Shown here: piece by piece, positions 1,014-17,388 of the stretch
Layout of the letters: each line of letters begins with the position of its first letter
Position numbering within the stretch: the first letter of the stretch is position 1
DNA from: Amphiscolops sp. MND2022
Taxonomy: Eukaryota
Assembly (NCBI GenBank): GCA_964187785.1
Contig: OZ076409.1
Location: forward strand, 11,658,001 to 11,722,000
Direction of reading: 5' to 3'
DNA length: 64,000 bases
The notes under the pieces: generated by a model
Database searches by the model: none
Told to the model about the DNA's origin: nothing
What the model saw: only the letters and a program-made list of their open reading frames with translations
Translations under genes and position numbers: made by a program

Positions 1014-1318
1014 TGTAACCTACCATTACTGGATATCGGAAAATGTTTCCCCATAAGCAGTGGAACGATGAAAAGGGAACCGGCCAAAAGGAAGGGTACC
1101 GTCCAAACGGAACGGCCAAAAAGAAAGGTACCGTCCAAAAGGAACGGCCAAAAGGAACGGTCACCGTCCAATAAGAAAGGTTTAATAGTACCGTTTAGAA
1201 TGTAATCCTGCCCTTTGGAACAATGATTTGGCATAAATAGAGTTGATTTCTTATCATTTATTCATTATTAATTTAACCTTCATTCGAATCAGTTGTCTTT
1301 TTGTTATTCGACTCCACA
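1014..1318 (+). repeat. 5' LTR
   Basis: Starts TGTAACC, ends CCACA, and lies directly before the PBS. Matches 5188-5217 plus ~6758-7029. Contains internal tandem GGAACGGCCAAAA/GGTACCGTCCAAAA units. Confidence 0.9.
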
Positions 1319-1321
1319 AAT

Positions 1322-1339
1322 TGGTGACCCCGACGTGAT
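1322..1339 (+). promoter_or_regulatory. Primer binding site complementary to the tRNA-Trp 3' end
   Basis: TGGTGACCCCGACGTGAT is the canonical 18-nt tRNA-Trp PBS, 3 nt after the LTR-terminal CA. Confidence 0.9.
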
Positions 1340-1419
1340 GGATGATCCAACACAATTGGAAGACTCTACCACTGCTTATAATCACATAACTAACGGAGGT
1401 AGCAGTGATTGCAAAAACA

Positions 1420-2167
1420 ATGCTCAAGTGGGGAGAATAACAATCAAACCTCCAACTTTCTAAAGAAACAACCCGCAAGTCTGGTTCAGACAACTCGAGT
1501 CCCAATTTGCACTAGCAAATATCACCAGTTCCCAAACAATGTTTCACTACGTCATGGGCGCATTACCGGAGGACGTCGCAATCAACATCCCACTGGACGT
1601 TACTTCTTACGAATCTCTATAGGAGCAGATAATCGGAATCTACCAAACAAGTCAACAGGAGTTAGTGGAGGAGGCCTTAGGTTCAATTTCCCTTGACGTC
1701 CATAAACCGTCAGTCTATTTCCTACGCATAAAGTGCAAATTAGAAGATTGCCACTTAACCGTCGATGACCATTTTTACGCCACAAATTCCTCCAAGCGTT
1801 ACCTCCAACGACACGTGTTGCCCTGTCCGCACATCATAATTTGGCCTTGGACGATTTCGCTAAACTTGCGGATACGTTATACCAGTATTCAAGGTTCGAT
1901 TACCACGTAGCAGCAGTAAGACCCAATCCTAAGGCCGAACATGATTCTGTCTCCCTGAACAGAAACTTTCAACCCAATTCTAGACAGCAAAAAGGAGGGA
2001 TGTTTCCCTTCAGCGCGGGGCAAAAACCAAAAATTTGCCGATTTCTTGTCTTCTATGCAAATAATGCCGAGCGGTGTAAACCCTGGTGTAAGTGGCCTGG
2101 TCAGAAACCACAGTTGATTGATGCTTCATCACGACCAGCAACCCCAAACAACCCAGCGTCAAACTAG
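1420..2167 (+). pseudogene. Gypsy gag, disrupted
   Basis: Fragments IKPPTF*RNNPQVWFRQLESQFALANI and LDDFAKLAD, plus a degenerate C-terminal Cys knuckle. Stops and frameshifts are present. Confidence 0.75.
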
Positions 2168-2229
2168 GAACCCCTAGCGTAGTGGAAGCTTGCACTGGGG
2201 GTTTTATTCATTGAGATCGCTGCCTCTAT

Positions 2230-4847
2230 CAATTCTAGTCAGCAAAAGTTTCTTATAGACACAGGATCAATGGTGTCCATTGTTAAGCCCAGTTTAATCC
2301 ATCCAGTTACTATTCTGCCTTCCAACGCAGTTCCATCCACCATTAAAGGTGACGCATTGAACGTTTACGGAAAAGTTACAATACCAATTGAAATACCTTC
2401 CTTACGACGTTGCATCAGCGATACCTTTTTCGTCGCTGACGTGTCGTGCAATATTCTTGGTATTGATTTCTTGTCAACAAACGATTTTTCAATTGATTGC
2501 AAAAATGGCCGCCTCAAGGATAACACAACATTGTTGTCTACTGCAACTCAATTTAAAAAGTGCAACCATGCAAATTTAAAAAAAGGAACCTAACGATTGG
2601 AGGCCTTGTGGAGATTACCGACGGTTAAATTCGGTCACTAAAAAGGATTGCTACCCACTTCCACAGCTATTGGATTTCAATCTTCATGGCGAAATAGTTT
2701 TTAGTAAGTTGGACTTAGTAAAAGCATACCATCAGATACCAGTACACCCTGATGACATAAAGAAAACTGCTGTGACAACACAGTTTGATCTTTTTGAATT
2801 TCTACGAATGCCCTTTGGTCTCCGAAATGCAGGACAAACATTCCAACGCTTCATGAATACAGTTTTCCAAGGATTAGATATGGCTTTCACCTTCGTGGAC
2901 GACGTTCTAATTGCATCAGACGATATAACGACTCACTTGGAAGACATCGAAGCGGTATTGGAACGCCTGAAGCAATACGGACTGCGCTGCTCTATAACGA
3001 AATGCAAATGGATGAAGAATGAGATCAAATTCCTCGGATTTTCGATCACTGCTGAAAGTTTACAACCTAAAGCGGTCAAAGTCGAAGCTATTCAACGATG
3101 GCCACGTCCCACAAGTTACAAAAGTTTGCGACGTATGATGAGAATGTTCTCTTTTTATCGACAACATGTTCCCCATTATGCAGAAATAGTCGAATCTCTC
3201 CAAACGTTACTCAATGATAGTCAGCCATCCCGTACTTCAAATTTGATAATCGACACACCACTGCGTTGGGAACAATTCCACGATGACGCTTTGACTTTAT
3301 TGAAGAACAAACTTTCTGAACGTACCATGTTACACTATTTATCTCCAGATGGTACTCTCACTCTCACCACTGATGCTTCTGACAGAGCAATTGGCGGAGT
3401 TTTACACAACAACAGAACGGACGGGACAAACGCACCTCTAGCCTTCTTCTCACGAAAATTATCTGTCGCAGAACGAAATTATTCTGTATTTGATAAAGAA
3501 CTTTGAGCAATTTTTGCCGCAACACAGAAATTTCGACGGTTTATTGAAGGTCTTTACTGTGTCGTTTTTACCGACCACAAACCCATTCTGGCGTCCTTTC
3601 GAAAAACAACCGACCACTCCCCTCGACAATCACGGCAGTTTTCGTTCTTGTCGGAATTTATTGACGACATTGTTCATATTGCTGGTGACAGCAATTTGGT
3701 AGCTGATTATCTATCACGACCCGAAAAAGAAGAGAGTTGGGTACAACAGTCGAAACTTGTATCTGCTGTAACTTGTGACCTTTTCGATTTACAGGCAATC
3801 GATGAAGCGCAAACACAGGAATTTAAGGAGGAATTGTGCCAGGTGTACAGTCAAGGCACCAAAATTGTTACTATTCCACCAGACAAAAAATTACTCTGCG
3901 ATAATGCTCTCATCCCCCGCCCAATAGTTCCACCAGAAATGCGGAAAAAATTGTTCCTCAACTTTCACAACATGTCACATCCGAACTGGAAGGCAACTAA
4001 TAAACTGATTTCAGCACGTTTCACCTGGCCGCATTTGGGTTCGGACGTGAAGGGTTGGTGCAAGGAGTATTTACACTGTCAGAAAAGCAAAGTTACACGA
4101 CACACAATAACGCCTCCTGCATCAAATGCAAGTTATCCAGCCCGTTTCCAGCATTTACATTTGGACATAGTAGGTCCTCTGCCTGCAGTGTCGAATTGCC
4201 CGAATAGATATATTCTTTCTTTTATCGATCGATCAACAAACTGGATAGAAGCTACTCCCATTAGTTCTATCACCGCAGAAGTCGTGGCTGAAACATTTAC
4301 TTCTACTTGGTTTTCGCGGTTCGGAGTCCCACTCTACATTACTACCGATCAAAGACGCCAGTTCGAATCTGATTTGTTCGCCGAATTATCCAAGTTGCTT
4401 GGTTTTGCACGTCTTCGTACTATACTTTATCACCCCCAAGCCAATGGTAAAATCGAAAGGTACCATCGAACTTTAAAAGCGTCTTTAGCAGCCTCACCTT
4501 TACCGTGGACTCAAGCTTTACCGGTCGTTTTATTCAGTCATAGAATTCTGCCCAATGCCATGGGAAAATCCCCTTTTCAACTGGTAACCGGATCGGATGC
4601 TTTTCTTCCCACTATTTTTAAAGAAAAACAACAACAAACATTCACTCGTGATTTCGTCTCTAAACTGGCCACGCATTTGCAGTTATTACAATTTACAACA
4701 CCTTCATTGACTCCTCATTCCGGTTCCAAGCAATATGTTCCTCTTGACTTTCAGGAGGGTAGTCATGTTTGGCTACGAGTTGATCGTACCAGGCGTCCTT
4801 TGGAGGCACCCTATAGTGGTCCTTTTTCTTTTTCTGGAACGCAATGA
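2230..4847 (+). pseudogene. Gypsy pol (protease, RT, RNase H, integrase), disrupted
   Basis: DTG protease. The RT N-terminus appears deleted near 2580. RT/RH ORF 2670-3506 ends in an in-frame TGA. Integrase ORF 3648-4847 has an HHCC remnant, the D-D-E core (HLDIVG, TTDQ, GKIER) and a GPY/F motif (PYSGPF). Confidence 0.92.
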
Positions 4848-4947
4848 TTAAACAAGGTTGATACAATGCACGAACGGTCCTACCCGAGTGAGTTAAACCA
4901 GAATTAAACCTTGGTACTTTCCATCAGAGCCACATATCAAACCAACT

Positions 4948-5151
4948 GTGCCAAAATTGTTAGAGGACAATGGGTCCTTTTATACTTGTGGGGGACCTTT
5001 TAACACCGGTATGATCGGCTGCGACGGTCCTAATTGTGTCATACAATGGTTTCAATTTCCGTGTGTAGGAGTTGACAAACCTCCTCAAGGCAAGTGGTTT
5101 TGTCCTACTTGCAGGGAACAACGAGTTCAGAAAACCGTTTCATTCGCATGA
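4948..5151 (+). pseudogene. ING-type PHD finger remnant at the 3' end of the Gypsy internal region
   Basis: YTCGGPFNTGMIGCDGPNCVIQWFQFPCVGVDKPPQGKWFCPTC follows the ING PHD pattern (MIGCD..C..EWFHF.CVG....P.GKWFCP.C). The first Cys and the His appear substituted. Confidence 0.85.
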
Positions 5152-5498
5152 TATATGTCAACCCTCCGTTATTTTATGGGGGACCTCTGTAACCTACCCA
5201 CACTGTATATCGGAAAAAAATATTTCGATTCCAATTTTAGTCACAAATTCTTTATTACTTTTTTTTGTTTGAAACATTATATTAAACGTATAATTCAAGC
5301 CGTTAGATTGATGGGCAACAATGCGTTGAGGCAACTTATCATGATTACGTAATTACGAAGTAGTATGATGACTCATATGAATCATTTCAGAAGTCATCGG
5401 AAGTCAGAAACGTGACCACACTTCAAACGACACAAAGGATCGTTTGCAACCCACAGAATCACTTCTCTTCAAAAAACAGCACCAAACGGTCGGCAGAA

Positions 5499-6418
5499 AT
5501 GGAAATCAGCTCAGACGAAATGTCCCTTCTGAAACTCTACAGGACCGGCAAAATGCAGGCTCGGAAGAATGTTACCAAACCTCGCCAATTTGACATTGTT
5601 GTCTATTACGCCGCAGAATGGAATGGTTGCTATTACAAAGTCAACTGAGTGGTTCGCTCAAGTGCCAGTGGACAACGAGCAAATTGTTAGCAATCCTGCA
5701 CCTAGAACGTTTCACTGCAATTCAACACCACAGAAACAGCGTGAACAACTTTTATCCAGCTCTTCAGATTCGAGCAGCAGTTAATCCGAGACCGATGAAG
5801 TACCACCACCCAAAAGGCCGCAGAAGAAAAGTGATGGCAAGGAAGAACGGTTCTCGCCAGCTAAAGAATTGGCACGACCCCCAACCAACGAGTGGCACAA
5901 CAACCTGGTACCGCTGAATAAGCTGGCCAGCCTGTCCACATCGCAGATAAGCACATTAGACGATGTCAACGAGGTCGACGATCAAATCCGTGACCTTACG
6001 CCAGAGATTGAGGACATCAACGTTCCCTTTCAAGAAGAAAGTTTAGCCATAAAAGTGCCTCCAGGAGCCAAATTTGGTAATTGGGTTATTTCACGAAAGA
6101 GTGGCATGACAGGTTTTGAGATCAACAATATGTGCCGAGCCATGGGACGTTTCACTGGTTTGAGGTACGATCAGATTGAAGCAAAACGACAAGCCAAATT
6201 ACATGACCCGAGCTACTTATGCTGCAGTGTTGGTTCACCGTCTGTGGTTAGTGGCGCAAATATTGGACAACCCGAGGTCAACATTGCGGAAAAAAGTCAA
6301 GGTTTTTGCGAAAAAGAAGATGGACCTGACCAAGCAGACAACACTTGCTAATTTGATACTTCGGTTGCGACTAACTGTAACCGACACCGATTACTTAGCT
6401 TCACTGATATCGGAAATT
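5499..6418 (+). pseudogene. Decayed ORF of unknown function inside the 3' LTR (NLS-like and HTH-like motifs)
   Basis: ORFs 5412-5648, 5569-5784, 5869-6351 and 6176-6478 join with 2 frameshifts and 1 stop. Motifs PPPKRPQKK and LVAQILDNPRSTLRKKV. Confidence 0.55.
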
Positions 6419-6419
6419 G

Positions 6420-6757
6420 GGCTGGCTGTAAATAGGTCGAATTTTTCTGGTCGAAAGGACAGAGGTCGAACCTTTTGATCGAATTGCAGGGATCGAATAA
6501 AATGCGGTCGAATTTTATCGTATTTGTTGTATGGCTCGGTCGCTTCGCTCGCTTCGCCAAGTAGCAACATTGAGGCATGGCCATATGGCACGTCGCTCCG
6601 CTTCGCTTCGCTCCTGCATCCAGGGCACTAGGGGTATGTGAACATATCTTATAAAAGTTTCGATCCGAGTTGTTTCGATCCCATTCAAAAATTTGGTATG
6701 TCGACCTGAGGACTAACTGATTTTCGATCCCGTTTCTTCGACCTATATCCGCCCACC
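6420..6757. mobile_element. Mutator-like MITE (TCGA-rich family) inserted in the 3' LTR
   Basis: Imperfect TIRs GGCTGGCTGTAAATAGGTCGAA / TTCGACCTATATCCGCCCACC. Flanks CGGAAATTG and CGGAAAATG match at 8/9. Near-identical to 11726-12353. Confidence 0.8.
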
Positions 6758-7179
6758 CGGAAAATGCTTCCCATAAGCAGTGGAACGGTCCAAAAGGAAC
6801 CGGCCAAAAGGAAAGGTACCGTCCAAAAGGAACGGCCAAAAGGAAAGGTACCGTCCAAAAAGAACGGCCAAAAAGAACGGTCACCGTCCAAAAGGAAAGG
6901 TTTATTAGTACCGTTTAGGATGTAATCCTGCCTTTTGGGACAATGATTTGGTATAAATACAGCTGATTTCTTATCATTTATTCATTATTAGTTTAACCTT
7001 CATTCGAATCAGTTGTCTTTTTGTTATTCTTATAACCCTGCATTCCTCACCTGCCTTCCTTTTGTGTCAATTCTATTTATACTATTTACTTTGTTCTGGA
7101 ATCAATGATAGAAAGTCATTTGTACTGCCACATCCCGAAGGTTAATTGATTATCTTCTTCTTCTATTCGGATTGCATGA

Positions 7180-8169: not shown

Positions 8170-11100
8170 TTGTTGTTGTTCTTGTGAATTTCCAGCTCGG
8201 CTGGAGGAATCTCTTCCTATAATTTCCAATGTATCCAGCTGTTTCACAGAGAGGGTTCACTCTGTATGCAAAAGTAGTCTACACTTTTGTTAGGGGGCCC
8301 TCTAGCTTACAAATTGAAACGTAAAAAATCAAAGCCTAAACATAAAAACAACTTAAAAGAACAAAGTGTTGAGAACGAATGGATTTTTCCTTTGAACATA
8401 AGGTCTATCGACTACAATTTTGAAGAACTAGAAACGCATATAGATACATTTCGTGAAAACAAACCGTGTATTATTTGCTTGTCCGAAACATGGATGACTG
8501 AATCCTCTGACAAAAATGCCTACGCACTAGAATCCTATGCACCTATGGAATTTGATCCTGGTTCAACAAGAAATGAAGGTGTTGCAATATATGTCCATGA
8601 ATCGCTGGCATTTGAACTTTTGGAGCTTAACATACAGAAAGATTCTATTCCTGATCTAAACTATACTGGAGTCAATTGTACCGCTAGGAATAAGGAAAAA
8701 TTTACCGTTGTATGCTTATACAATTCGCCTTCCGTAAATAAACATGATTTCTTGAATCAGTTTGAGTTACTTCTTGAGTCTCTTAGTCAAATTAAGAACT
8801 ACTATCTAATAGGCGATATTAATATTGACCTCTTGGAATGCAACCCTGTTGCAGATAGGTATCTGAAATTGTTGGAAATTCATGGTTGCGCCCAAGGAAT
8901 CGAAGAACCAACCCGTGTAACGCTTGACTCAGAATCGTTAATCGATCATATAATCCATAATGACTACCAAAGACCTCTGGAATTTGGAGTTATCAAGACG
9001 TATATTACAGACCATTTTGCAACCTACGTTGATTTGAATATAAGTAAATCTAAATCCATTCGTTCTCAACATTTTTTTAAGGATAGACCGTTTCTCCGGG
9101 ACGGTAATGCAACAAATCTCTATCTAAATTACTTAAAACATTGCCTGGAACTTGTAGACTTAGGACAGGACATCAATGCATCTACTGAATCGTTTGCCAA
9201 TGCAATATCGGAAGCAGTTAATGCTTTCACAGTTGAAAAACAATCAGAACACCAAGATGCCGTAAGACCTTGGTTCACAAAGGAAGTAAAAAAGGCCTTA
9301 ATTCGAAGAAATTGTAGTTTCCACAGATACAAGCGCTGTAAAACCTATCAGAACAAGCTACGCTACACAAGAGCTAGAAATAATGTGCACCAGCAGCTTC
9401 GTAAAAGCAAGCGCGAATAATACGATTCACGTCTGAATGGGCTTATCAATATACCTAAATGTTTCTACAAAGAACTAAACAAAATCACTGGTAAAGCAAC
9501 AAAAAATTCCAACTTTGTTATCAAGAATGATAAAAATGAATTGATTACGGATGATATTGATGTGGCCGAATCGTTCAATGAAAAATTTGTTTCCATCAGT
9601 AAAACCTTAGCTGCTTCAATTGATAATGTCCCATTCACGACTTATGGTATAAAAACTAATGAAAAATCACTATTTTTTTATCCAGCTGATGGCACTGAGA
9701 TTTCGAGGATTATAAAAAATCTTAAGAACCATAAATCACCTGGTCTAGATGGACTGACTGCAGAAATACTAAAAGTGAGTCACGATGTAATAGTTGAAAA
9801 ATTAACTCATCTCGTGAATGAATCGCTAAAAAGTGGAACATTTCCTCAGGTTTTGAAAGCTGCGAGAGTGGTACCGATATACAAATCCGGCAAAAAATCT
9901 ATACGTGAAAATTACAGACCCATATCTGTTTTATCAGTATTGAGCAAAATATTTGAACGTGTTGTGCATGAACGATTATATAATTTCATGGATAAAAATA
10001 AGCTATTATACCCAAGACAATTTGGATTCAGGTCAAAACTGAGCCCCATCCACGCTCTTTCCGATATTACAGAAATGATTAGGGATAATTCTAACCTCGA
10101 TATTTCTTGTATTTTGCTTGATTTACAAAAAGCCTTCGATACAATAAACCATGAATTTCTCTTGTATAAACTCGAAGCATACGGTGTCAGAGGGGTTTGC
10201 TTGGATTGGTTCACATCATATCTAAGTAAACGAAGTCAATGTGTTTCAATTAACGGTAAAGTCTCAAAACCATTACTTATTGACTGCGGCGTTCCTCAAG
10301 GATCTATTCTTGGCCCACTGCTCTTTATAATTTATGTAAATGATTTCCCGAACTCGTGTAAAAACATTATTCCGTTTCTCTTTGCGGAAGATGCTAATTG
10401 CGTTTACGCGAGACCCAAAAATGAAACATCTACATTACAGGATGAAGTTGAACACATTCCTGGATGGATGGCTATGAATAAACTCAGTCAAAATATTCCT
10501 AAAACTGAATTGGTCCATTTTTTAAACTGCAAAGATGAAAGCATAGTATTGAAAAATACTGAAATAACATGTACTGAATACGTTAAATATCTGGGTATCT
10601 TACTTGATAAAAATTTAACTTATGGTTTCCACGTCAAACGAGTACTGAATAAATTAGCTAAACATGTATCCATTATTAACCGTCTAAGGCATTTCACCAG
10701 TAGTTCGGTAGTGATACGATATTATAAAACATACATGAAACCAATTATCCAATACGGACTCTTGATATATGGGTGCACGAGGAAGAGTGTACTGAATGAT
10801 ATATTTCTTGTTCAGAAAAAAATCCTCCGTATTACATACTTTAAAAACAGACGATATCCATGGGATGAATTGTTCAAAAGAAGCGAAATTATGAATGTTT
10901 TTGATCTATACGTATTTGAACTATTAAAATTCGCCGTGCGTTCTAGTAGAGAAAGTCAACTACATAATATCAAGAGCGTATTTATCCACAAAAATTCACT
11001 TGTTTTTACTCGGAGTGTTTCTTCCAATATGTTTTATGTACCTGAAGCACGAACGCAAGTTAGCCGACAATCACTAAAATATCGTGGAACTGTCTTACTG

Positions 11101-11407
11101 AATCATCTACTAAAAACGAAGCTATTACCTCGCAATTATGAATCTATCGGTGAAAATGAGACTAAAAGATTGATATTAAAAATTAAAAACAAAATAAGTA
11201 GCGAACGTCTGGCAGACATAGTTTTTTGTTGATGCCCTTGTGTTTGGAGGGTCCTCCCCCGTTTAGGAATAATAACCTTTGGAGGGTCCCCTCTGGTGCT
11301 ATATTTTTAATTGAACTGACTGCATTGTACTTAACTTCTGTACTGGTACTATTGTTCAATTTTTTAAACATAGCATCAGAGAAAATTTAATTCTTTCTTT
11401 CTTTCTT
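8170..11407 (+). mobile_element. L2/CR1-type LINE, near-complete ORF2, inactivated
   Basis: APE endonuclease and RT ORFs are in the same frame. The 3' UTR ends in a (TTTC)n tail at ~11391-11407. The 5' boundary is approximate. Confidence 0.85.
8287..11232 (+). pseudogene. LINE ORF2: APE endonuclease + reverse transcriptase with one premature stop (9418-9420)
   Basis: EN motifs LNIRS, CLSETW, GVAIYV, GDINID, SLIDH, TDH. RT motifs KSPGLDG, NYRPIS, QFGFR, DLQKAFD, GVPQGSILGP, KYLG. The catalytic FADD reads FAED. Confidence 0.92.
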
Positions 11408-14147: not shown

Positions 14148-15729
14148 TGCCAATAGAAAAGTCCTGAAAATCTGATTTTTGGCAGTCTTCAAGAATGGCC
14201 AATCAACGAGCCCTATAAGTCCGTGTTTTATTTTTGCTGGCAATATCCCTAGGCTGATCCGCTATGTAGCATTTCATACACCAACGTGTAGTAAGTTCAA
14301 CATCATTTGCATTCATTTGAGTTTTTTGGTCATGATTGGCAAATATTAGACCGTTTTGATTTTCTTCGCTTTTACGTGTGCAATCTTTTGTGAGCATTGT
14401 TTCTTCGCTAATAGCGATTATTAATCTTCAGTTCTACCCCCATGGGACCCTTCAGACTGTTTATTGGTATCATATGTGCTATGGTCAATTAATTTTTATA
14501 ATTCGATTTGATGTGTGTGTAAGTAATGACACTTCATATTACTTTTATGAAGCTCTCAAATCGCAGTTTTTGAAGCATCTGAAATTTTCGTCAACTCTAT
14601 CCTTCTCATCTCTCTTGAATGTACGGGGCTTCTCTGCCATCAATAAAATAAAGACTTAGTTGGCCATGGTTAATTACACTCATTTCATTGTACACAGATT
14701 TACTCGATCCAAAATGGCTCAGTAATATCGCTTTTGTTGTTTTGCAAAAATACCTGCGCTTTATTGTATCAAGAATTAGATTTTCGTTCTGCAAAGTGAT
14801 TGGCGCTTGCATATATTTTCTCGAATGTCATTGAGGTGTGACGTGTTTTCATTGGTTGATACACCATCTTTATTCAAGAATATATTCTTTGCTTGTTGAC
14901 TAAAATGAACCTTTTGAGACTTATTCTGCGGGGAAAAGCAAAGTCGAGTCTCGATTTAACACTTTCCTCATTCTCAGGTTTGGATTCAGTTTCTACATTA
15001 TTGAGCTCTGCTGCTTTCATCTTTTGGCGCGGAGTTTGCTTTGGCTGGCTCTGTGGGGGGTTCAAGTTGATTAGATTTGTCAGTGATCGAAATTACTGAT
15101 GCTCTCCTTTTATCATTGGTTGTTCAACACCAAAGCGCTTCGATTGATGGTCAAGTTCTTTCTGGGCAATGTGATTGTACTGGGTTTGGCTCGATGAATG
15201 ACAAAAACTTCGTTGTTGGTGAAATGTGACAACCTCGTTTCACAACATTCAGTATTATAAATAAAATACTAGTTTCAATTGCCTCAAGCTACCATCAGTG
15301 ATTTGTTTGTTTGTCAACTTTGTAATAATCAAATTAGTCTATTTATATTGAAAGTTGAAGCGTTAACGACGTTGGGGCAAACAAAGCAAAACACGCATTT
15401 TGTATTTTGTCGAATCTTCATTTTCTTCCACACTTGACTTTATCCTGAAGAGACAGTTTTACAAATAAGCACGAAAGAAGTTTTGCAAGAATAATAGTCT
15501 TGCTAAGTGAATAGAATTGCCAGTACTGAGGATCTTACTCACCGTGCAGTAAGGACTGAATTACTGTGCTTCGCGGAAAGGCTCCTAGCAGCTGTTCCTG
15601 AGCCGCAGTTGATACTACGAAACTGAGAAGATTGCTAACGGCAGGCGGCCAACAATTTCAAAGTTGAGATTCGTTGCAAAACTTGCCCTGAGCACCAGAA
15701 ACGAAAGCAAAGAACTCTGCAATTCAAAA

Positions 15730-17388
15730 ATGCAAGTGCACACAGGCAGCTTCGGTTGTAGCTTGGAAGGAGCCCCGGTTGTTGGGAGTAAAAACGGCGG
15801 TGGCAGAGACACAACAAAACAACCACCAGTCCAAGACCTCCTACTGCGTGAAAATGTTAGCATGCGGAGACAACGCCTTGTTATGATTTGGTCCTCGGAG
15901 GCCTGTGCAACTCTTTCAGACAAGCCTTCAAAGTGCTTTGAATTGCGGGACCAGGCTTTAAAATTTACGCCACTTGGCCAGCACTTCTTTGTTTTCCTTT
16001 CTCACTTTATCACTATTCTTCTCTCCGCCAAATGTTTTCCTTTTCACGGTCATCACCTTACAAAGTTTTATTGTTACTCTTCTTTGAAACTTTTAATTGC
16101 CTCACATTCAATTAACACCATGTTGCTTTCAGTGTCTAAATGTTGGAGATGTTATGCTGCAAACAACATTTATGGTTGCAGAAGCTCGGAAAAGAACAGC
16201 GGCAGTTCAAACACAAGCAGTTCCTGTCTTTTGACGAGTTTTTTGGAGGACAACTCAATTGCTCTTCTAGGCAGAATACAAAGACTCCTTGCATGTGATA
16301 TAGATCACCACAGCCAGCTTCGCTTTTCGCTAGCTCAACGTCGCCGGTCTGGGCAACCCAAAGGATCGTCGTTCATTTCCGGCCAAGGTCGAACTTCTGA
16401 TCTTTTTCCACAATCGAGTGAAAAGAGAATCGCTAACACAACGGAAACCGTATCATATCGTTTACTACTTTTATTTATTGTGCTCAACCTCATAAACCCC
16501 ACTTTAGCTTTACCACAGTTGCAATCGGACCCGTTGGGCAGCGGAACAAGAAACGACAGAATCTCTGTAGGTGCCGACGTAATGGAGTCCTCTGGTTCCG
16601 CTGCAGCGCAAGAGTTCAACATTTGTGACGAGGCCAACTGTCAAGAAAACTACCATTGCGTTCCTCTGCGAAGTGGCTACAAGTGTCAATGCAATGACGG
16701 TTTCATAGAGCAAGACGGCCAGTGTGAGTTGGCGTTGGAGAAATCATGCAGTAAAGAAGACGATGAAACGTTTTGCTTACACGGAGGCATCTGCATTATG
16801 ACCTTGACCATTGGAACCCATTACGCTCGATCCTGCAGGTGTGACCCAGAGAGCGGTTACACGGGTACGAAGTGCGAACAAATAAACTCCTACAGACTCT
16901 CATCTGCCATGCAGAAGTTCGACTCAAAAGACGTACAGAACACGACAGCCGTAGTTTTAGTTATTTTCCTTGCAACTTTAGTTGTTTTATCTGTTGTTGG
17001 AAGGCTGCGATGTTACTTGAAAGACAAAGCGCTCGAGATTGAAATGCTAGCTGCTCTGCACAAAGAATACGACGATATGACTCAGCAGTTGAATGAGAGT
17101 GGTCGCTTCGGAGGCAGTGGCTACCAAATGCACATGCACTCATTGCCGGTGACAATGGCTCCTCCTCATCCTGCCTGCGGTGACGCGGCGGCGTTGGCGG
17201 ACGACAATTATTCTATATCTTCCAGCTACTACTTCCGAAACAACCACCCTCAGACCAGCCCAAAGATGCTGCATCACCACTGCTCTGCCTTACCGTCGTC
17301 ACCTTCGCCCCAGCCCCCTGTGGAAACTCGGGTCATCCCGATAAGACACGCTTTGTCCGAACTGAGGCTGCAAGAAACCCAGACTTGA
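15730..17388 (+). CDS. Membrane-anchored EGF-domain protein (EGFR-ligand/TGF-alpha/neuregulin-like); start uncertain (ATG at 15730 or 16120)
   Basis: Hydrophobic segment LLLLFIVLNLINPTLA. EGF1 at ~16624-16726. EGF2 CSKEDDETFCLHGGICI...CRCDPESGYTGTKC at ~16747-16875 has ligand-like spacing. TM helix AVVLVIFLATLVVLSVVG, then a Pro/Ser/His-rich tail. No intron is needed across the domains. Confidence 0.85.
   Translation: MQVHTGSFGCSLEGAPVVGSKNGGGRDTTKQPPVQDLLLRENVSMRRQRLVMIWSSEACATLSDKPSKCFELRDQALKFTPLGQHFFVFLSHFITILLSAKCFPFHGHHLTKFYCYSSLKLLIASHSINTMLLSVSKCWRCYAANNIYGCRSSEKNSGSSNTSSSCLLTSFLEDNSIALLGRIQRLLACDIDHHSQLRFSLAQRRRSGQPKGSSFISGQGRTSDLFPQSSEKRIANTTETVSYRLLLLFIVLNLINPTLALPQLQSDPLGSGTRNDRISVGADVMESSGSAAAQEFNICDEANCQENYHCVPLRSGYKCQCNDGFIEQDGQCELALEKSCSKEDDETFCLHGGICIMTLTIGTHYARSCRCDPESGYTGTKCEQINSYRLSSAMQKFDSKDVQNTTAVVLVIFLATLVVLSVVGRLRCYLKDKALEIEMLAALHKEYDDMTQQLNESGRFGGSGYQMHMHSLPVTMAPPHPACGDAAALADDNYSISSSYYFRNNHPQTSPKMLHHHCSALPSSPSPQPPVETRVIPIRHALSELRLQETQT

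Follow-up and report, generated by a model that had tools for sequence, protein, structure and literature searches.

Does the ING-like PHD finger that follows the integrase of a decayed Gypsy retrotransposon belong to the element, and what could such a domain do there? The window, a stretch of 64,000 nucleotides from a eukaryotic assembly of 1.07 Gb, carries at positions 1014-7029 a dead copy of a CsRn1-clade Gypsy retrotransposon with a 5′ LTR, a primer-binding site, broken gag and pol, a PHD frame and a split 3′ LTR (Table 1). An earlier note on this DNA had placed the PHD inside the element, past the GPY/F motif and ahead of the polypurine tract (PPT), and our analysis agrees. The best solved-structure match of the PHD in the 84-aa stop-to-stop frame at 4897-5151 (+ strand) was the PHD of ING4 (E 3.5e-15; E 4e-18 for a sibling copy), and the best 20 of the 24 structure matches were ING, Yng or Pho23 proteins. 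The Pfam PHD hit on the same frame was weak and below the cut-off (E 0.024). The window PHD is indeed out of frame with the integrase, which reads GPF at 4818-4826 and stops at 4845-4847, and two of its zinc ligands are substituted, with Tyr at the first Cys position and Gln at the His position. What the earlier note had missed is the shape of the 3′ LTR: the PPT and the LTR start do follow the PHD, but only 30 nt of the LTR lie there, and the rest begins 1.5 kb downstream (~6758-7029). No target duplication is visible around the window copy because the last few bases of its 3′ LTR are missing.

Table 1. Features of the Gypsy element in the window (positions of the whole stretch)
Feature	Position	Strand	Remarks
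5′ LTR, short form	1014..1318	+	30-nt start block X, then at once the LTR rest; TG...ACA ends
Primer-binding site	1322..1339	+	complementary to the 3′ end of host tRNA-Trp
gag	1338..2167	+	DUF7041 domain; broken in the window copy; CHCC zinc knuckle in sibling copies
pol	2183..4847	+	protease, RT, RNase H, H2C2, integrase core, GPY/F at 4818-4826; frameshifts and stops in the window copy
Integrase C-terminal tail	4897..5151	+	linker, ING-type PHD finger (~4978-5112), RVxF-like end; in frame in siblings, out of frame in the window
Polypurine tract (PPT)	5176..5187	+	
Block X, initial 30 nt of the 3′ LTR	5188..5217	+	
Family-wide segment, 3′ LTR only	5218..6417	+	ORF3 remnants (ATG at 5499; 309 aa in open copies); ends in X′
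X′	6402-6417	+	12-nt repeat of the end of X; closes the ORF3 segment
Unrelated dispersed repeat (families D2, D14)	6419..6758	.	inserted at X′; specific to the window copy
3′ LTR rest	6758..7029	+	last few bases missing; 215/230 aligned bases identical to the 5′ LTR

Our results clearly showed that the IN-PHD fusion is a family trait and is in frame in natural copies. The DNA search of the genome gave at least 43 matches (40 of 59 candidates scored) and the protein search at least 123 (150 of 154 scored), which sort into family A, to which the window copy belongs, an older family B with a PHD ~60-70% identical, and family C with a PHD ~43% identical. Read as it stands, the stretch from GPY/F to PHD is a single open frame at 15/30 family-A, 2/16 family-B and 25/36 family-C loci, so that the fusion which the earlier note had inferred is found directly. 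Among 20 loci, a single PR-RT-RH-IN-GPY/F-PHD frame of 1102 aa was present in three of five family-A copies, and a single PR-RT-RH-IN-PHD frame of 1136-1145 aa in five family-C copies. The LTRs indicate young copies, with 240/240 matching bases in two of family A and 93-100% identity in the family-C LTR pairs examined. Each of the C4HC3 ligands, two of which are substituted in the window copy, is conserved in 24-30 of 30 family-A, 11-16 of 16 family-B and 10-13 of 13 family-C loci. IN-PHD proteins with 42-49% identity in the tail were also found in assemblies from ENA, JGI and Logan (P0002, P0032-P0038, P0134, P0140 and P0145, plus one contig, L186), although P0032 may originate from the source genome or a near relative. 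The predicted fold of the integrase tail, made from a single sequence, was poor (pLDDT 43). The integrases close with an RVxF-like motif (5130-5148 in the window), which we take to be of the PP1-docking type; it was found in 14/14 PHD-bearing and 24/26 PHD-less integrases (P0002-P0145), under a loose pattern that has no chance control. Since this end is common to both kinds of integrase, the PHD appears to have entered the protein past the GPY/F domain and ahead of a conserved tail.

The primer-binding site of the element matches a complement pattern at 8 host loci, two of the three scanned being tRNA-Trp genes. Natural family-A and family-C copies carry the Gag motif C-x2-H-x9-C-x3-C, and exact 4-bp target-site duplications flank 12 of 13 family-A sites (the window copy has none) and 16 of 20 family-C sites. 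Ten of the twelve family-A duplications begin with G or C, a count that has no chance comparison. Together with GPY/F, the tRNA-Trp primer-binding site, the CHCC motif and the 4-bp duplication point to the CsRn1 clade; the integrase tree described below was built with unnamed relatives. The same four features are described for CsRn1, PwRn1 and AgCR (PMC2582038, PMC3630058), as are the TG...ACA or TG...AAA ends and the overlapping gag and pol that our element shares. The CsRn1 clade is presented there with neither chromodomain nor Env and with LTR pairs of equal length, and the accessible text of both papers makes no mention of a PHD, a third ORF or a split 3′ LTR. The chromoviruses, MAGGY and its kin, likewise carry a histone reader at the integrase C-terminus past GPY/F, as far as the accessible parts of PMC6673714 and bioRxiv 10.1101/2021.11.30.470311 describe them. 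They belong to another clade, however, and their reader is a heterochromatin-reading chromodomain, whereas that of our element is a PHD which by its sequence is of the H3K4me3-binding type. Pfam saw the PHD and no chromo family on the element, which is chromovirus-like in layout and is not a chromovirus.

PHD fusions to retrotransposons are already known in general. According to the available sections of the respective papers, retrotransposon PHDs have been called widespread (PMC6673714, which also cites a PHD in ORF1 of the LINE CR1), cnidarian retrotransposons carry a PYGO1/2-type PHD (bioRxiv 10.1101/2021.11.30.470311), and Ginger1-9_HM, a DNA transposon, has a PHD after a Gypsy-like integrase (PMC2836005). 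As portrayed in these texts, the known fusions involve a PYGO-type or unspecified PHD, or sit in a DNA transposon or a LINE ORF1, whereas here an ING-type PHD defines one CsRn1 sub-lineage. No paper was found on an ING-type PHD in CsRn1 integrases in a search of the openly accessible literature; Supplementary Table 6 of 10.1101/2021.11.30.470311 may list cases, and the main text of PMC5890265 has no occurrence of PHD. The PHDs of ING1-5, Yng and Pho23 (PDB 2k1j, 2g6q) resemble that of the element in their C4HC3 spacing, in the pattern MIGCD..C..WFH..CVG...P.GKWFCP.C and in the cage positions. The element differs from them in its distinct loop between C2 and Met, in a weaker R2 pocket and in the absence of the N-terminal ING domain, PF12998, which is present in the host loci L071, L081 and L082. 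The ING-type IN-PHD fusion described here is real, old and selected.

The selection is seen between families A and B, where pN/pS was 0.20 for the PHD, 0.17 for RT, 0.21 for IN and 0.26 for GPY/F, in a comparison of 5 by 12 copies whose pairs are not independent and whose pS of ~0.8 is saturated. Judged by these ratios, constraint on the PHD is on a par with that on RT and IN, and the domain has been under purifying selection between the families; a domain out of frame and free of selection, which the earlier note had named as a result that would refute its reading, is contradicted by this value and by the natural in-frame copies. Within family A no signal of PHD constraint was detected (5 nonsynonymous to 2 synonymous shared changes, 0.62, versus 0.63 for singletons), a test of low power with seven shared changes only. 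In an integrase tree made without the PHD columns, 12/12 PHD-bearing rows fell on the same side of one branch (SH-aLRT 94), and equally few PHD changes were obtained in 0 of 500 shuffles; the tree has 42 rows, a quick method and a midpoint root, and its PHD-bearing rows were found through a PHD-containing query. This single branch suggests one old capture of the PHD as the simplest reading. The PHD-less P0003 is the sister of the PHD-bearing rows, and since such close relatives exist, the PHD is dispensable for the clade.

The tree with host ING proteins that the earlier note had suggested did not single out a donor of the domain. Only 3 of the 54 branches of this 50-column PHD tree were starred and most of it stayed open; the PHD of the host ING gene L071:3024-4229 (G000:C3, near 83.62 Mb) grouped weakly (82) with the Gypsy protein P0134. 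This gene is intronless and its PHD carries the loop motif C-x3-[FY]-[NDT]-x2-M, which occurs in 14/14 Gypsy PHDs and, among 201 other PHDs, only in L071 and its database twin P0234; the motif was defined after inspection of the Gypsy set. The L071 gene is a candidate donor, or recipient, of the PHD of the element, and the 10 kb around it contain no retroelement remnants. PHDs of the ING type are likewise carried by YqaJ-, OTU- and MESR4-like proteins. Fusions to a YqaJ-like nuclease or to OTU were seen in P0062, P0090, P0096, P0098, P0101, P0105, P0107, P0111-P0117, P0120, P0125 and P0126, which suggests that this PHD subtype travels on other mobile-element proteins as well.

What the PHD may bind can be approached from its conserved residues. 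Two acidic positions, which form the H3R2 pocket in ING, vary among the Gypsy PHDs (Asp in 10/14, Glu in 8/14), and family A retains one of them and family C neither. The aromatic, Met and Trp positions of the methyl-lysine cage, aligned to ING4, are kept in 14/14 divergent Gypsy PHDs, the earlier note having proposed to look for such a cage in a consensus; they correspond to the cage residues identified for ING2 and ING4 in the accessible text of PMC4225485 and PMC8123807. The PHD thus likely binds H3K4me, as far as these residues predict. We consider it probable that it remains on the mature integrase and binds H3K4me there, and by holding K4-methylated H3 tails it would likely tether the integration complex to nucleosomes. 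That it would further bias integration towards H3K4-methylated chromatin broadly, rather than strictly towards promoters, is a possibility to which we give slightly less than an even chance.

As a proxy of targeting, we set the 400-bp flanks of insertions (13 in family A, 20 in family C) against 120 stretches taken out of 20 arbitrarily chosen 10-kb regions. The flanks gave no promoter signal, their GC and CpG not differing from those of random DNA (CpG o/e 0.94 for A, 0.96 for C and 0.96 for random). Repeat cover above 10% was found in 5/13 family-A, 11/20 family-C and 39/120 random stretches, family A being equal to random (p 0.90) and family C higher (p 0.035). Three things weaken this proxy: CpG is not depleted in the genome, the repeat library used was small, and insertions into promoters are removed by selection. 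Random-like or repeat-rich flanks would also be expected if the PHD were a general tether to nucleosomes or H3 tails, serving nuclear retention at any K4 state with little influence on the landing site, and the R2-pocket residues, variable and absent in family C, would fit as well. We nevertheless hold this to be rather unlikely, since the three cage positions kept in all 14 divergent PHDs form a pattern tied to methyl-lysine binding, and a promoter signal would be erased by selection after insertion. The proposal of the earlier note, in which the PHD directs the element to active promoters bearing H3K4me3, fared worse: it has in its favour the ING-type fold with its cage and a position equivalent to that of the chromodomain, but the 33 flanks carry no promoter-like signal and many lie in repeats, with the weakness of the proxy as stated, and the window copy adjoins a dead LINE. 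Promoter targeting is therefore unsupported, and we regard its strong form as improbable. A non-histone target, such as a host protein, a phosphoinositide or the nucleic acid of the element itself, or a role in stabilising the integrase, seems to us very improbable; phosphoinositides are also bound by the PHDs of ING1/2 (according to the available part of PMC8123807), but the invariant residues are those of the histone groove. A one-off neutral capture, to which only the brokenness of the window copy would point, is hardly credible, because the PHD occurs in three families and in other assemblies at a pN/pS of 0.20, and this result contradicts the one-off capture that the earlier note had raised against itself.

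The 3′ LTR of these elements is organised in an unusual way. At the 3′ end the order is PPT, X (the first 30 nt of the LTR), 1,180 nt with the 309-aa ORF3, X′ (a short stretch repeating the last bases of X) and then the LTR rest, whereas in the 5′ LTR X is joined to the LTR rest and the ORF3 segment is absent. At the 30 family-A loci, PPT-X is followed by the ORF3 segment in 29 and directly by the LTR rest in none, X having not been found in one. All 11 complete copies with exact, distinct 4-bp target duplications (among 26 sequences) are short at the 5′ and long at the 3′ end, a tandem pair is bracketed in the same way, and a solo LTR has the short form. The exceptions are L061, with a clipped 5′ LTR and a 48-bp flanking duplication, and L064, whose 5′ LTR begins 100 nt inside the ORF3 segment. 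L061 (681-954, 6553-6600) is a young copy with 48 bp in place of the 4-bp duplication, which might result when a cDNA is integrated with one of its ends defective. In L191, L192 and L093 partial units are arranged in tandem; the unit of L191 and L192 runs from the PHD tail through PPT, X and the ORF3 segment to the LTR rest. In any one element, the X variant and the LTR length of the two ends go together, so each 5′ LTR has been copied from its own 3′ end. Target duplications were scored for families A and C. Among 18 loci, three family-B copies and one intermediate copy have the split LTR, three other family-B copies have two short ends, and the rest are partial. The repeat pair at X and X′ is GATGTCGG at both sites in family B and GATATCGG at both in family A. 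Family C has ordinary LTRs of ~174 bp, and the split therefore arose inside the PHD lineage. A TATA-like box lies at position 185 of the 270 of the LTR, which suggests that X is not at the 5′ end of the RNA and would be rebuilt from the 3′ copy in each cycle.

In textbook reverse transcription a single template yields both LTRs, and LTRs that differ in a reproducible way are therefore a sign of one more template jump. An additional plus-strand jump from X to X′ is the likeliest route to the short 5′ LTR. In this scheme, which we think somewhat probable, the PPT-primed plus strand would stop past the 30-nt X at an A-run, be displaced by re-priming as in Ty3, pair again at X′, 1.18 kb downstream, by means of 12-14 homologous nt, and be extended; the short strong-stop strand would then template the short 5′ LTR, and the 3′ end would retain ORF3. 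Repeated PPT priming with plus-strand displacement is described for Ty3 in the accessible text of PMC5371799. The main rival is a skip that occurs while the minus strand is made, on one of the two templates packaged together, after which the short plus strong-stop strand transfers to the full-length minus strand. The three family-B copies with two short ends (L175, L181, L182) have no ORF3, as a minus-strand deletion would yield, but this route predicts many family-A loci short at the 3′ end and 0/30 are; we consider it the less likely course by a clear measure. Segmental duplication of one insertion was rejected as the cause of the recurrent split LTR, the flanks and 4-bp duplications being distinct, and can practically be dismissed. 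Splicing was rejected too, as no GT-AG was present at 13 junction positions on either strand and splicing would leave neither end with the segment. No strong pairing was seen between the two ends of the skipped stretch (-9.9 kcal/mol, a value with no shuffle control).

Integrated copies with unequal LTRs are also found among HIV-1 proviruses (PMC9278108). As described in the available part of that paper, the HIV-1 asymmetry is sporadic and consists mostly of 3′ deletions, whereas the 5′-short/3′-long form reported here is seen again and again, in separate insertions belonging to two families that have diverged, and preserves a gene. This was the nearest case in the openly accessible literature searched, in which no report of a heritable split LTR was found.

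The gene kept in the split LTR, ORF3, gave a pN/pS of 0.34-0.39 between families A and B, and its C-terminal part showed no constraint signal within family A (1.05; low power). No Pfam family was detected, with only a sub-threshold HTH_psq hint (E 0.17, 3/5 members), and the fold predicted from 5 sequences was poor (pLDDT 46.5) and had no PDB match at E ≤ 0.001. Its 16 homologues are all of one source type. A YxDD-like tag on ORF3 was rejected as a pattern artefact with no Pfam hit. By these comparisons, ORF3 appears to be a conserved gene without known family or fold match.

Taken jointly, the explanation that we mildly favour is a conserved in-frame ING-type PHD that likely serves as an H3K4me-binding tether, together with a gene in the 3′ LTR over which the plus strand likely makes an extra jump. 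The stronger joint reading, to which we incline a little less than to its contrary, is that a programmed third strand transfer (a stop after ~30 nt and a 1.2-kb hop over the U3 gene through a co-evolving 12-14-nt repeat) would take place in every cycle, in an element whose integrase would read active-chromatin marks via a captured ING-type PHD. An old and selected integrase-borne reader of the active-mark type would be a natural counterpart to the chromovirus readers that send elements to silent chromatin, and the PHD-less sister elements and the 50-residue size of the domain make the idea testable. The split LTR is the more surprising and weightier part as compared to the PHD fusion: it offers a route to carry a U3 gene without duplicating it, and programs that find or date LTRs would mis-call elements whose LTRs are reproducibly unequal.

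Other features of the window lie on both sides of the element. A broken LINE remnant (1-960) adjoins the 5′ LTR, and a second LINE remnant at 8278-11232 (+ strand) has a nearly whole endonuclease-RT ORF2 with one stop. Further downstream, an uninterrupted frame of 591 aa at 15613-17388 (+ strand) contains EGF-like domains and a likely membrane segment, and resembles an EGF-family ligand.
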